64,000 nucleotides of DNA from NCBI GenBank assembly GCA_045863335.1, contig BTVY01000028.1, positions 1-64,000 of the forward strand, in the 5' to 3' direction. A program made the translations under genes and the position numbers. Below, one piece after another: positions 341 to 4,222 of this stretch. Origin of the DNA: Candidatus Hydrogenedentota bacterium (GTDB lineage Bacteria; Hydrogenedentota; Hydrogenedentia; Hydrogenedentales; SLHB01). The notes under the pieces were generated by a model. It did no database searches and had not been told where the DNA came from. It saw only the letters and a program-made list of their open reading frames with translations. Numbering within the stretch: position 1 is the stretch's first letter; each line of letters begins with the position of its first letter.

Positions 341-1897
341 ATGGACGCGCGTGCCACTTCACATTTCAGATTGACCAATGGAGGCATGCTTGCGCTCGTC
401 GCATTGCGGGTGCTGGTGGGCTGGCATCTCCTGTACGAAGGGCTGGTCAAGGTCATGCAGCCGGATTGGACCTCCGCCAGTTATCTCTCCAGTTCGCGGT
501 GGCTGTTGGCCGATGCGTTTCATTGGATCGCGTCCACGCCGTCCGCACTGCGCGTCGTCGACGTGATGAACGAATGCGGTCTCATCCTCATCGGCGCAGG
601 ACTCATGCTCGGGTATTTCTCGCGCATCGCGGCCGCGTCCGGTGCGCTGATGCTCGCGTTGTATTACATTGCCCATCCGCCGTTTATCGCGTCGCAGGTT
701 GGCATGCCGGTCGAAGGCAGCTACCTCATCATCAACAAGACCCTCGTGGAGATGATCGCACTCGTCGCATTGACCGCCTTCCCCGCAGGGAAGTACCTGG
801 GCCTGGACCGGTTCATCCACTACCTCCGCAACCGGGGGCACGAGGCGAATGGCGAACTCCAGGGAGCAGATCGCCCGCAGCCTCTAACGGCCCGGCGCGA
901 ACTGCTGGCGAGCGTCGCCACGCTGCCTGTGGTCGGCGCGTTCGGATACGCCTTCTCGAACCGCAGCAAGGCGACCAGCATCGATGCCATGACCGGCGCG
1001 ACGATCACCTTCGAGAATCCGACGCTCGCGGATTTGAAGGGGACGCTGCCTAAGGGCCGCATCGGCGATCTGGAAATGAGCCGCATGATCCTCGGCAACA
1101 ACCTCATCGGCGGCTGGTCGCACTCGCGCGATCTCATTTACGTGTCGAAACTATTCCGCGCGTACAACACGGAGATGAAGATTTTCGAGACGCTCTGCAC
1201 AGCGGAACGGGCCGGCATCGACATGTTTAACATCGTCAACGACCAGTATCCCTTCTTTCACAAATACAAGGAAACCATGGGCGGCAAGATGCAGACCATG
1301 TGCCAGTGCTTCCCGCAAGTCGGCGACGTGCGGACGGACCTCGACCGGGCTATCGACAACGGCGCGACGACGCTCTACGTCCAAGGCGGACGTTGCGACA
1401 GTCTCATCCGCGATCAGTACATCGATGTGGTCGCGGAGGCGGTGGAGTACATCAAGAGCCAGGGGTACGTCGCGGGAATTGGCGCGCACTCTATCATCGT
1501 GCCGATGACCTGCGAAGAGGCGGGGCTGAATCCCGACTACTACGTGAAAACCTGCCATCACGACCGGTATTGGTCCGCCATCCCGCGCGAGCAGCGGAAG
1601 GAGTTTTCGATTGTCGCGCCTTACGAAGCCGATCATGACGGGTACCACGACAACATGTGGGATCTCTTTCCCGAGAAGACGAACGAATTCATGGCGACGG
1701 TCAACAAGCCGTGGGTGGGATTCAAAGTGCTCGCGGGCGGCGCGATTCATCCGAATGAGGGATTTAGATATGCCTTCGAAAACGGGGCGGACTTCATCTG
1801 CGTGGGCATGTTCGACTGGCAGATCGTGGAGGATGTGAACATCGCGCTGGACGCGTTAGCCGCAACACAGAACCGCCCGCGACCGTGGCTGGCGTAG
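341..1897 (+). CDS. DoxX-family membrane domain fused to an aldo/keto-reductase-like TIM-barrel domain
   Basis: N-terminal LRVLVGWHLLYEG...LIGAGLMLG DoxX pattern with 4 hydrophobic segments; C-terminal GRIGDLEMSRMILGNN...GFKVLAGG...GADFICVGM pattern; ATG 341 preceded by GGGGGA. Confidence 0.75.
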   Translation: MDARATSHFRLTNGGMLALVALRVLVGWHLLYEGLVKVMQPDWTSASYLSSSRWLLADAFHWIASTPSALRVVDVMNECGLILIGAGLMLGYFSRIAAASGALMLALYYIAHPPFIASQVGMPVEGSYLIINKTLVEMIALVALTAFPAGKYLGLDRFIHYLRNRGHEANGELQGADRPQPLTARRELLASVATLPVVGAFGYAFSNRSKATSIDAMTGATITFENPTLADLKGTLPKGRIGDLEMSRMILGNNLIGGWSHSRDLIYVSKLFRAYNTEMKIFETLCTAERAGIDMFNIVNDQYPFFHKYKETMGGKMQTMCQCFPQVGDVRTDLDRAIDNGATTLYVQGGRCDSLIRDQYIDVVAEAVEYIKSQGYVAGIGAHSIIVPMTCEEAGLNPDYYVKTCHHDRYWSAIPREQRKEFSIVAPYEADHDGYHDNMWDLFPEKTNEFMATVNKPWVGFKVLAGGAIHPNEGFRYAFENGADFICVGMFDWQIVEDVNIALDALAATQNRPRPWLA

Positions 1898-1917
1898 AGA
1901 AGAAAGATGGGGACAGA

Positions 1918-1940
1918 AAAACAGGGATAGTCCCTGTTTT
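1918..1940. terminator. Palindrome between convergent genes, probable bidirectional terminator or REP-like hairpin
   Basis: AAAACAGGGA-TAG-TCCCTGTTTT, followed by a second GTCCCTGTTTTT half-copy. Confidence 0.55.
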
Positions 1941-1954
1941 GCAGTCCCTGTTTT

Positions 1955-2116
1955 TCATTCGAGCAACTTGGCGCGCGACAATGCGTCGGGCAGTTCCATC
2001 ATGATGAAGATCATCAGCAGGAGTAGCAGTCCCAGAACGAGGACGGCGCTGATATCTATTGAGAAGAGCGACCAACCCTTGCGATCGGGACGCCTTTGCC
2101 AGATCCACCACGACAT
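1955..2116 (-). CDS. Small single-TM membrane protein, 53 aa (MSWWIW paralog 2)
   Basis: MSWWIWQRRPDRKGWSLFSIDISAVLVLGLLLLLMIFIMMELPDALSRAKLLE; RBS AAGGGGG upstream; paralog directly upstream. Confidence 0.7.
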   Translation of the reverse strand: MSWWIWQRRPDRKGWSLFSIDISAVLVLGLLLLLMIFIMMELPDALSRAKLLE

Positions 2117-2127
2117 GGGCACCCCCT

Positions 2128-2271
2128 TTAGCGCACCATCAATGGCACGACGACCATGGTCAGGAAAAGGGCCAGCAGGATTAATCCGATAGACAGAAAT
2201 CCGGAAACGTCGACAGAGGTGAGCCACCAGCCTCTATGGTTCCTTCGCTTGCTCCAGATCCACCATGACAT
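2128..2271 (-). CDS. Small single-TM membrane protein, 47 aa (MSWWIW paralog 1), absent from ORF track
   Basis: Translated by hand: MSWWIWSKRRNHRGWWLTSVDVSGFLSIGLILLALFLTMVVVPLMVR*; aligns with the 1955-2116 product. Confidence 0.7.
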   Translation of the reverse strand: MSWWIWSKRRNHRGWWLTSVDVSGFLSIGLILLALFLTMVVVPLMVR

Positions 2272-2291
2272 GATCCCGTGCATCCCGGAAG

Positions 2292-2327
2292 AATAGGACG
2301 TATAGGACTGATAGGACCTATGGGACG
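2292..2327. repeat. Short tandem 9-mer repeat (ATAGGACnn x4)
   Basis: aataggacg tataggact gataggacc tatgggacg. Confidence 0.6.
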
Positions 2328-2361: not shown

Positions 2362-3198
2362 CTACCCAGCACCACGCGCTATCGCTTCCGCGATTCGACT
2401 ATACCACTCCCAGGGCAGCTTCACCTTACCCATTTCCGCTTGGCCTTTGATTTCGCCGTGGCAGTCCGAGCCGCCGGTGACGATGAGGTTGCGTTCTCTG
2501 GCGAGTTGGAGGAACGCGTCGGATTTGCCGGGGCTGTGCTTGGAGTGGTAGACCTCGATGCCGTCGAAGGGGAACGTGAGCAGACTGGGCAAGATGGTGT
2601 GGGTGGTGCCGATGCCGGGGTGCGCGAGGAAGGCGAGGCCGCCGGCGCCGTGGATGAGTTCGATGGCGTGTTCGCAGGAGAGGCGCGCCTTCGGCACGTA
2701 GGCGCGTTTGCCGGACCCGATGTAGCGGTTGAAGGCGTCCTGCACGGACTTCGCGTGCCCCGTCGCGTGAAGTTCGCGGGCGATGTGCATGCGGCCCACG
2801 GCCGCGTTGGGACCGGCGTGGGCGGTCACTGCGTCCAAGGTGATGGGAATGCCGAAGCCATTCAATCTTTCAACAATTTTCGCGGCGCGCTCGTTACGGC
2901 TGTCGCAGAGACGCGCCAACGCGGCGTTGAGTTCCGCGTCGTCCAACCGGACGCCGAAGCCAAGGATGTGGACTTCGTGTTTGCCGTGGGAGGCGCTGAT
3001 CTCGGTGCCGCGGAGGAACGCGATTCCCGCGGCGCGGGCAGCAGCTTCGCCTTCCTCCAATCCCGCAAGCGTGTCGTGATCCGTGATGGCGATGGCGGAG
3101 AGTCCTGCGGCAACCGCGCGTTCCACGACGCGCACCGGCGAGTCCGACCCGTCGGAGTAGTGGGTGTGGAGATGAAGATCGGCGTAGCGGCCGCTCAT
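2362..3198 (-). CDS. PHP-domain phosphoesterase (YciV/TrpH-like)
   Basis: DLHLHTHYSDG, AITDHDT, GTEIS, HILG, LAHP, GIEVYH, TGGSDCHG motifs; the ORF-track extension upstream runs into a repeat. Confidence 0.9.
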   Translation of the reverse strand: MSGRYADLHLHTHYSDGSDSPVRVVERAVAAGLSAIAITDHDTLAGLEEGEAAARAAGIAFLRGTEISASHGKHEVHILGFGVRLDDAELNAALARLCDSRNERAAKIVERLNGFGIPITLDAVTAHAGPNAAVGRMHIARELHATGHAKSVQDAFNRYIGSGKRAYVPKARLSCEHAIELIHGAGGLAFLAHPGIGTTHTILPSLLTFPFDGIEVYHSKHSPGKSDAFLQLARERNLIVTGGSDCHGEIKGQAEMGKVKLPWEWYSRIAEAIARGAG

Positions 3199-3227: not shown

Positions 3228-3469
3228 AACATCCCCCTGGCGCTTCGCGCCGTCCCCCTTCAAAGGGGGAATTGCGCCCACACGCGTGCAACGTTGAAAG
3301 GCGGGCGGTGCGTCTAATCGTGATAGTCTCGGTGGCTCACAACACAACGCAAAGCGTTGTGTTGCGGATCTACCGGAACTTTCGAAAAGTGAACGACGCC
3401 TCGTACGCGCCGTAACACATGGTTGAGCAGGATTCCCCCTTCGAAGGGGGATCAAGGGGGATGTTCTTC
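3228..3469. repeat. REP-doublet element, copy B
   Basis: Left arm AACATCCCCC...TCCCCCTTCAAAGGGGGA, central CAACGC-AAA-GCGTTG, right arm TCCCCCTTCGAAGGGGGATCAAGGGGGATGTTCTTC. Confidence 0.85.
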
Positions 3470-3492
3470 GCGCAACTTGCATGCGTCGGCGG

Positions 3493-3984: not shown

Positions 3985-4057
3985 TCGATGAGGTCTCCTG
4001 TGTAGTTTCTTTTCTCAACGGCCGCATGCCGCAAATCGGAACGACCCCCATTATGCT

Positions 4058-4222
4058 GAAGAACATCCCCCTTGATCCCCCTTCAAAGGGGCAATTTCCT
4101 GAACCGAGGCAGCGAGGTATCTCAGTACCCTTGGCCCCAAGAGTTCCACGGGTCGCACTTGCGCAACGCGGAGCGTTGCAGCCATTCCCCCTTTGAAGGG
4201 GGATATCAAGGGGGATGTTCCT
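4058..4222. repeat. REP-doublet element, copy C
   Basis: GAAGAACATCCCCCTTGATCCCCCTTCAAAGGGG ... GCAACGC-GGA-GCGTTGC ... TCCCCCTTTGAAGGGGGATATCAAGGGGGATGTTC. Confidence 0.85.

Follow-up and report, generated by a model that had tools for sequence, protein, structure and literature searches.

What is encoded by two very short, tryptophan-rich open reading frames (ORFs) that lie one behind the other in the genome of a Candidatus Hydrogenedentota bacterium? The question is raised by positions 1,955 to 2,271 of a 64,000-nucleotide (nt) stretch, called the window here, of contig BTVY01000028.1 (assembly GCA_045863335.1). An original prediction, made from the DNA letters, had placed at this site two tandem paralogous microproteins 11 nt apart, each with one transmembrane (TM) helix. 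Are these ORFs genes at all? If they are, what could peptides of about 50 amino acids (aa) be doing in a membrane? The ORFs (ORF1 and ORF2; coordinates are collected in Table 1) lie where the prediction had put them, on the minus strand (a point that it had left unsaid), separated by an 11-nt spacer (2117-2127), and the translations given with it are identical to those computed here. In BLASTP the two products share 20 identities over 43 gap-free positions (47%, E 2e-10), a similarity far above chance; judged by their sequences, they are paralogues. Both have an MSWWIW start, an Arg/Lys-rich stretch, the motif G-W-x-L-x-S-[VI]-D-[VI]-S and then a strongly hydrophobic segment, whose best 19-mers reach Kyte-Doolittle values of 2.9 and 3.0 for ORF1 and ORF2, respectively. 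A profile built from the two matches nothing else in the whole 6.75-Mb genome (the next best match has an E value of 0.43). Frames beginning Met-Ser-Trp-Trp, with the start codon read as Met, are not rare in themselves, as 17 are listed genome-wide, but the architecture of the family is found in only ORF1 and ORF2.

ORF1 and ORF2 are very probably true genes, each coding for a single-pass membrane microprotein. The argument comes from comparison with relatives. The frame, the MSWW start and one strongly hydrophobic 19-mer (Kyte-Doolittle 1.9-3.1) are kept by seven distinct members, which come from the window's own genome, its five congeners (G001-G005) and a genome from a different genus (G013); frame, start and architecture survive at identities as low as 25-52%. 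The second codon reads TCA in ORF1 but TCG in ORF2, in line with the original prediction; across the members the Ser2 codons are TCA, TCG, TCT and TCC while the residue never changes, and the use of all four TCN codons at an invariant serine therefore points to constraint on the protein and not on the RNA. The selection at the protein level that had been suspected from this synonymous difference is borne out by the proportions of nonsynonymous and synonymous differences (pN and pS) and by the pattern across codon positions. Between G001 and G002, over 52 codons, pS is 0.26 and pN 0.04 (ratio of nonsynonymous to synonymous rates, dN/dS or omega, ~0.13), and the differences at codon positions 1, 2 and 3 number 1, 3 and 11 (11 of 15 at the third position; binomial p 0.0018). 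ORF2 and the G004 protein, compared over 40 codons, give a pS of 0.43, a pN of 0.25 and an omega of ~0.48, with 15, 5 and 15 differences by position; the second position is the least changed (5 of 35), as expected when hydrophobicity is kept. ORF1 and ORF2 themselves are more distant (43 codons; pN 0.33; 18, 13 and 25 differences by position), with a saturated pS of 0.77 and an omega that is not computable.

Could the ORFs nevertheless be non-functional or very young, hydrophobic by-products of an intergenic region, or else a leader or attenuator that acts through its Trp codons? The extremely narrow phyletic range would suit such an origin, three of the first six codons are for Trp, and the Shine-Dalgarno motif of ORF1 is weakened. 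Against it stand the third-position bias and the omega of ~0.13 between G001 and G002, as well as a start and frame that are kept at 25-50% identity. A leader peptide would also have nothing downstream to attenuate, because a terminator-like hairpin and a convergent gene follow. An Rfam scan returned only matches below threshold, namely RsmY with 21 bits (57 needed) over the terminator hairpin and the L31 leader with 18.6 bits (33.2 needed); with such scores both are treated as chance. We regard this explanation as improbable.

How far does the family reach? Proteins were searched with word-indexed methods across 5.8 billion clusters and with a full HMMER pass over 1.84 billion representatives, ~15 billion proteins in all. 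Genomes were searched in six frames; the larger of these searches scored 50-125 first-look candidates per genome, and some genomes are incomplete. Among the 5.8 billion clusters, the two-sequence profile found 2 proteins and a seven-sequence profile found 5, to which a search for longer proteins added only P0007. HMMER gave 4 matches at E <=0.001, three of them family members. The fourth, P0004 (1137 aa, 10 matching stretches), is a low-complexity tandem-repeat translation and was discarded as a relative. The family thus stands as 6 single-member clusters, whose names, where given, are 'hypothetical protein' from Candidatus Hydrogenedentes/Hydrogenedentota. The original prediction had proposed looking for homologues in this genome and its relatives, and the six-frame searches found them, with conserved frame, in every one of the 5 congeners (G001-G005) and in G013. 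In total, 7 of the 135 genomes of the phylum carry the family, the window's own included, and no further members appeared among 54 genomes of the taxonomic family, 133 of the order and 135 of the phylum, some of them incomplete. A match in G012 (E 0.0086) lies inside a 370-aa frame and was counted as chance; the weak matches in G010, G012, G032, G035, G048, G055 and G059 sit inside long unrelated frames or lack the motif. A metagenome scan with a peptide pattern derived from the profile matched 364 stretches, none of which was confirmed, and a DNA pattern for tandem start motifs matched 0; a scan of genome contigs returned only the G003 and G004 loci. The family therefore appears, from these sequences, to be tiny and confined essentially to one Hydrogenedentota genus.

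The tandem arrangement is rarer still. It is present in the window's genome and in G003 and, by inference, probably also in the genome behind P0007. This public call of 103 aa has a C-terminal 53 aa that is the ORF2 orthologue (79% identity), and it starts MVDLEQ, which is the start of ORF1 read one frame off. P0007 is a mis-annotation, in which an out-of-frame reading of the ORF1 region is fused to the ORF2 orthologue. In the protein collection, ORF1 is represented only by the G003 form, which is 98% identical; the exact 47-aa sequence did not turn up. A single copy of 45-52 aa is found in G001, G002, G004 and G013, and ORF2 is 52% identical to the G004 protein. ORF1 and the single-copy gene of G004 and of G005 have leaders that align, so that ORF1 is the positional orthologue of that gene. 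The member from G005 is longer and may be a stop-loss extension or a fusion; its extension carries two more hydrophobic stretches.

The shared pair in the window's genome and G003 has a history of its own. Across 1800-2900 the two genomes differ by only 8 mismatches in ~1100 nt (locus L030), whereas the flanks show 5-21 mismatches per 100 nt, and the block looks like a recent recombination tract. Is this a gene-specific sweep at the locus? We rejected that idea, since near-identical blocks are common elsewhere: of 422 windows of 300 nt sampled from 20 further G003 contigs, 25 reach 99% identity or more, against a median of 93%, and they come in runs on ~4 of the 20 contigs. Such blocks suggest either frequent recent recombination between the two species or chimeric assemblies. 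Among public RNA data, one run shares 0.20 of the words of the region and one probable DNA run 0.05, and no contig covers 1869-2270; the run contigs that align to the region are mostly 90-95% alike (relatives) or represent other copies of a 9-nt array at 2288-2327.

The original prediction had not recognised the family, and the libraries do not either. There is no match in Pfam, NCBIfam, PHROGs or PADLOC beyond isolated sub-threshold matches to multi-pass membrane proteins, which are put down to hydrophobic bias. A profile search of the PDB gave one match (E 1.6), and the ESM Atlas gave a best feature score of 0.76, which is chance level, and no structure. Full-text literature searches on Hydrogenedentes small proteins and on Trp-rich single-TM small membrane proteins returned no description of the family. 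Judged from these scans and searches, the family appears to be undescribed, yet it is of a well-known kind, that of lineage-specific single-helix microproteins. Bacterial small membrane proteins likewise have ~50 aa or fewer, one TM helix and no catalytic domain, and are lineage-restricted and often missed by annotation; ORF1 and ORF2 show the size, the single helix, the lack of a catalytic domain and the signs of coding that describe this class.

What does conservation say about the working part of the peptides? M1, S2, W3, W4 and L33 are invariant in the aligned members, and L17 and D21 nearly so. Conservation is otherwise confined to the N-terminal 23 residues, and the tail is variable. In 7 of 7 members the helix is preceded by 3-5 Lys/Arg (net +2 to +4) and followed by 0-2 (net -1 to +2). 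By the positive-inside rule, this would place the N-terminus in the cytoplasm and the short variable tail outside. The proteins end 1-13 residues beyond the hydrophobic segment, without a periplasmic domain. AlphaFold2, run with a 10-row alignment, predicts a helix at residues 22-52 of ORF2 with a predicted local distance difference test (pLDDT) value of 80-92. A prediction of an ORF1-ORF2 complex gave a score of 0.03 and a mark of 0.34; it was made without controls and supports no verdict.

The reading we put first, though it falls slightly short of an even chance, is that ORF1 and ORF2 may be N-in, single-pass accessory or regulatory membrane microproteins. The N-terminus would face the cytoplasm, and the (Met-)Ser-Trp-Trp tip, together with a second aromatic or hydrophobic stretch, would lie in the cytoplasmic membrane interface, the two being linked by an Arg/Lys-rich loop of 7-9 residues. 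The helix would open with x-L-x-x-[VI]-[DN]-[VI]-[SN], so that the nearly invariant Asp would sit some six residues deep in the membrane, counted from its cytoplasmic face, and the remainder of the helix and the short outer tail would be free to vary. The peptide could use the inner-leaflet portion of this helix, with its Asp, to dock onto a larger membrane protein or to associate with itself. An accessory or regulatory docking role seems the most likely because conservation sits at the cytoplasmic face and there is no outer domain. MgrB and AcrZ are small membrane proteins that regulate or complete larger membrane complexes. Neither these two nor CydX/CydS, CcoQ and CcoS have any sequence relation to the family, and the locus lacks an adjacent partner gene; the MSWW tip and the Asp at the helix start are likewise specific to this family when compared with known small membrane proteins. 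Still, an accessory role would fit the behaviour of small membrane proteins as set out in passages of PMC12648545, where they regulate kinases, respiratory complexes and photosystems and where CydX/CydS, CcoQ and CcoS are named.

Several observations weigh against this picture, at the level of the genes as well as of their function. The dN/dS values rest on short sequences (40-52 codons), and ORF1 is left without an independent orthologue for a selection test, because G003 shares the near-identical recombination tract. The Shine-Dalgarno motif of ORF1 is weakened, with GGGAT in place of the GGAGG found in the homologous leader of G004 and G005. The G005 member (L011/L025, about 1498-1848) has a GTG start, an Asn instead of the helix Asp and a length of 115 aa. 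AlphaFold2 folds the N-terminus as a Trp-rich hairpin (strands 3-8/15-20) with a pLDDT of 55-60, which is low confidence and can serve as a lead only. The one recurrent neighbour is a PHP-family phosphoesterase, an enzyme of soluble type, and this synteny may be plain vertical inheritance, since it is seen within one genus and not in the G013 locus.

The main rival to an accessory role is that the peptides perturb the membrane themselves, in the manner of type I toxins or YohP-type stress peptides: they would form inner-membrane oligomers that dissipate the proton gradient, and the tandem copies would reflect local amplification. Toxin-like peptides and accessory subunits had both been among the options of the original prediction. 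The namable type I toxins carry their charges mostly C-terminal of the helix, while the conserved charged part is N-terminal here. Size (47 and 53 aa, below 60), the single hydrophobic helix, the tandem paralogues and the lineage restriction all agree with a toxin, and the polar Asp within the helix could line a pore. The account of type I toxins in PMC12648545 indeed describes proteins of <60 aa with one helix that depolarise the membrane via oligomeric pores, and Hok/Gef, TisB, Ldr, Ibs, ZorO and DinQ are likewise small and hydrophobic with one helix, their copies often locally amplified (PMC12648545). The same account gives an N-terminal extension of a few residues as usual for these toxins (PMC12648545), but that of the microproteins, with 14 residues, is longer. 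Nor does the layout resemble separate toxin/antisense modules, as two genes with an 11-nt spacer form one operon-like unit with strong, unoccluded-looking Shine-Dalgarno motifs that are conserved: motifs of the GGAGG type stand before the start in G004, G005, G002 and G013 at the same distance as before ORF2. The opposite strand has one sigma-70-like promoter site against 0.4 expected; it is the only promoter-like site there and it points away from the ORFs, and Rfam finds no small RNA above threshold. PADLOC and Pfam give no toxin match. Taken with these points, a toxin-like function seems unlikely, if more credible than any other alternative weighed here.

Are the peptides perhaps secreted and not retained in the membrane? 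A leaderless two-peptide bacteriocin pair would be cationic, Trp-rich and made of tandem paralogues, and the locus does have tandem paralogues of ~50 aa, rich in Trp, with net positive N-terminal halves, which presumably resemble leaderless enterocin and aureocin-type peptides. However, an unbroken hydrophobic segment of 19-26 residues (Kyte-Doolittle ~3) fits a membrane anchor and not a soluble amphipathic peptide, no exporter or immunity family occurs among the neighbouring ORFs scanned with Pfam, and no bacteriocin family is matched, so that a bacteriocin pair is very improbable. A precursor of a bacteriocin or of a ribosomally synthesised and post-translationally modified peptide (RiPP) was dismissed as well, since neither a conserved Cys nor a Gly-Gly motif was seen in the aligned members and nothing interrupts their hydrophobic stretch. 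A twin-arginine translocation (Tat) signal was also rejected: the S/T-R-R-x-F-L-K motif is absent and the hydrophobic stretch is too long.

The original prediction had also pointed to a loose resemblance to a class III (prepilin) signal, so that the peptides could be mini-pilins or peptides cleaved after the Gly that precedes Trp15. In both ORFs a basic stretch is followed by Gly and then by the hydrophobic helix, much as type IV pilin and pseudopilin signals have a basic N-terminus before a hydrophobic helix, and some members of the family share the Gly. The genome also has prepilin peptidase, with 2 Peptidase_A24 matches over cut-off, although on contigs C48 and C17, away from the locus. This part of the prediction did not hold. 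Of 10 aligned rows, 7 have Gly-1 and the remaining ones carry Ser (G004), Ala (G001) or Glu (G013) there; Glu+5 is found in 0 of 10, the acidic residue being an Asp at +7 (Asn in G005). None of the 7 members matches N_methyl (PF07963) at E up to 10; the same model marks 59 canonical sites in the genome, none of them at 1955-2271. Nothing pilin-like follows the helix. The prepilin interpretation fails on its defining sequence features, and its chance of being right is close to negligible.

A bolder idea concerns the membrane-embedded Asp. In ExbD, TolR and MotB the N-terminus is in the cytoplasm, the cytoplasmic tail is basic and an Asp lies near the cytoplasmic end of the helix; in MotB a Trp stands six residues before this Asp. 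The predicted topology of the microproteins is alike in all these respects (N-in, basic tail, Asp near the cytoplasmic helix end, Trp six residues before), a likeness we take as a lead. Could the peptides be TM-only mimics of this Asp-bearing helix? They might insert into a MotA/ExbB/TolQ-type proton channel and plug, gate or re-tune it, or the paralogues might form a proton or cation path of their own. The genome has 6 MotA_ExbB matches (5 over cut-off) against 3 for ExbD and 1 for MotB_plug, and next to the MotA_ExbB gene on contig C41 no ORF of 70 aa or more is ExbD-like. However, this orphan ExbB might just as well be served by an ExbD on C30 that is itself an orphan, and there is no MotA_ExbB match on contig C28, which holds the microproteins. 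None of the 7 members matches ExbD (PF02472) or MotB_plug (PF13677) at E up to 10, and at the same limit the family profile does not pick up the ExbD and MotB genes that the genome itself has. The microproteins differ from ExbD, TolR and MotB in having no detectable homology to them, no periplasmic domain and no adjacent MotA/ExbB/TolQ gene. We consider this a long shot; if true, the Trp-rich tip would act as an interfacial clamp in a proton-conducting machine.

What surrounds the accessory-subunit candidates? The 11-nt spacer, the strong Shine-Dalgarno motif of ORF2 and the hairpin that follows make up what looks like an operon-like layout. The motif before ORF2, AAGGGGGTG, resembles what we take to be the extended Shine-Dalgarno consensus. 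On the minus strand, the fold of 1960..1895 has a free energy of -25.8 kcal/mol and a z-score of -5.6, with 0 of 200 shuffles as good, and the 1910..1948 element looks like a bidirectional intrinsic terminator, though a simple consensus terminator scan did not flag it. G004 has no such hairpin; there, 13 nt separate the end of the single ORF from the convergent gene.

Table 1. Coordinates of the two microprotein ORFs and of the features around them, as positions in the window
Feature	Position	Strand	Remarks
ORF1	2271..2128	minus	47 aa, stop TAA; begins MSWWIWSKRR; Trp-rich N-terminus, basic loop, one hydrophobic helix
ORF1, alternative start	in-frame ATG at 2283	minus	four codons upstream; adds MHGI
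ORF2	2116..1955	minus	53 aa, stop TGA; begins MSWWIWQRRPDRKGW; architecture of ORF1 plus a 13-residue polar tail
Shine-Dalgarno motif of ORF2 (AAGGGGGTG)	2120..2128	minus	3 nt before the ATG, 5 nt from the end of the G-run; overlaps the ORF1 stop codon
A-tract/hairpin/U-tract	1910..1948	unspecified	core CAGGGA/UCCCUG; immediately follows the ORF2 stop and, on its other side, the convergent 546-aa gene
Solo array of four 9-nt units GTCC[CT]ATNN (36 nt)	2291..2326	minus	ends 19 nt upstream of the ORF1 ATG
PHP-family phosphoesterase gene (3',5'-nucleoside bisphosphate phosphatase / RNase AM-like)	2362..3198	minus	upstream of ORF1; likely start is the Met of MSGRY
Gene for a 546-aa protein	257-1897	plus	runs towards the microprotein pair; its N-terminus has a weak DoxX match (E 7e-4, under cut-off)

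The phosphoesterase gene matches Pfam PHP (E 8.7e-15), with NCBIfam matches below cut-off to 3',5'-nucleoside bisphosphate phosphatase and to RNase RNM, the closest enzymes that have a name. G001-G005 likewise carry it upstream of their microprotein gene, but a search of the G013 locus did not find it. Its G004 copy (L024/L031) is split between two frames, one matching residues 1-180 and the other 164-273, which is either a frameshift or an assembly error. Beyond the phosphoesterase gene, a DUF520/YajQ-type gene is expected from the G005 orthologue. The convergent 546-aa protein also has a faint match to the HvfX family (DoxX-type RiPP maturation; E 0.21), and its large C-terminal part matches no family. 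The families seen among the Pfam-scanned neighbouring ORFs are PHP, DoxX-like, DUF520 and esterases.

The 90-nt gap between the phosphoesterase gene and ORF1 has no unusual fold (z +0.7) and contains the 36-nt array of 9-nt units. Could this array be the promoter of the pair? It is in the same position in G003, G004 and G005, and other 9-nt repeats lie upstream of the microprotein gene in G001/G002 and G013. Genome-wide, the window's own genome (G000) has 69 GTCC[CT]ATNN arrays of 3-5 units, 38 of them in opposite-strand pairs <400 bp apart. In 18 of 20 array pairs, ATAGGAC-arrays are followed by a spacer and GTCCTAT-arrays, and the spacers measure 7-366 bp (mostly 41-174 bp) and are dissimilar between pairs. 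The coding strand of the downstream flank is the same for 26 arrays, opposite for 28 and unclear for 15 (n=69). A promoter role was rejected as a general rule because there is no fixed orientation to the flanking coding strands, and the arrays look instead like an unusual intergenic element of the repetitive extragenic palindromic (REP) or bacterial interspersed mosaic element (BIME) kind, spread over the genome and not specific to this locus. Other REP-like intergenic repeats, at about 100-190, 3290-3480 and 4030-4200, translate to PLKGDQGGCSS or FEGGSRGMFF in several frames.

What would the family mean for biology? Many orphan single-helix peptides of such a kind exist, and the finding opens no long-standing question. 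It does illustrate how gene callers miss or mis-call genes of this size, with ORF1 not found in the collection and a relative over-called at 103 aa. If translated, ORF1 and ORF2 would give an uncultured phylum a clean, compact case of a membrane microprotein family specific to one lineage. Its sequence marks are unusually sharp and lend themselves to mutational tests: the tip with its invariant Ser-Trp-Trp, the basic loop and the Asp embedded in the membrane.

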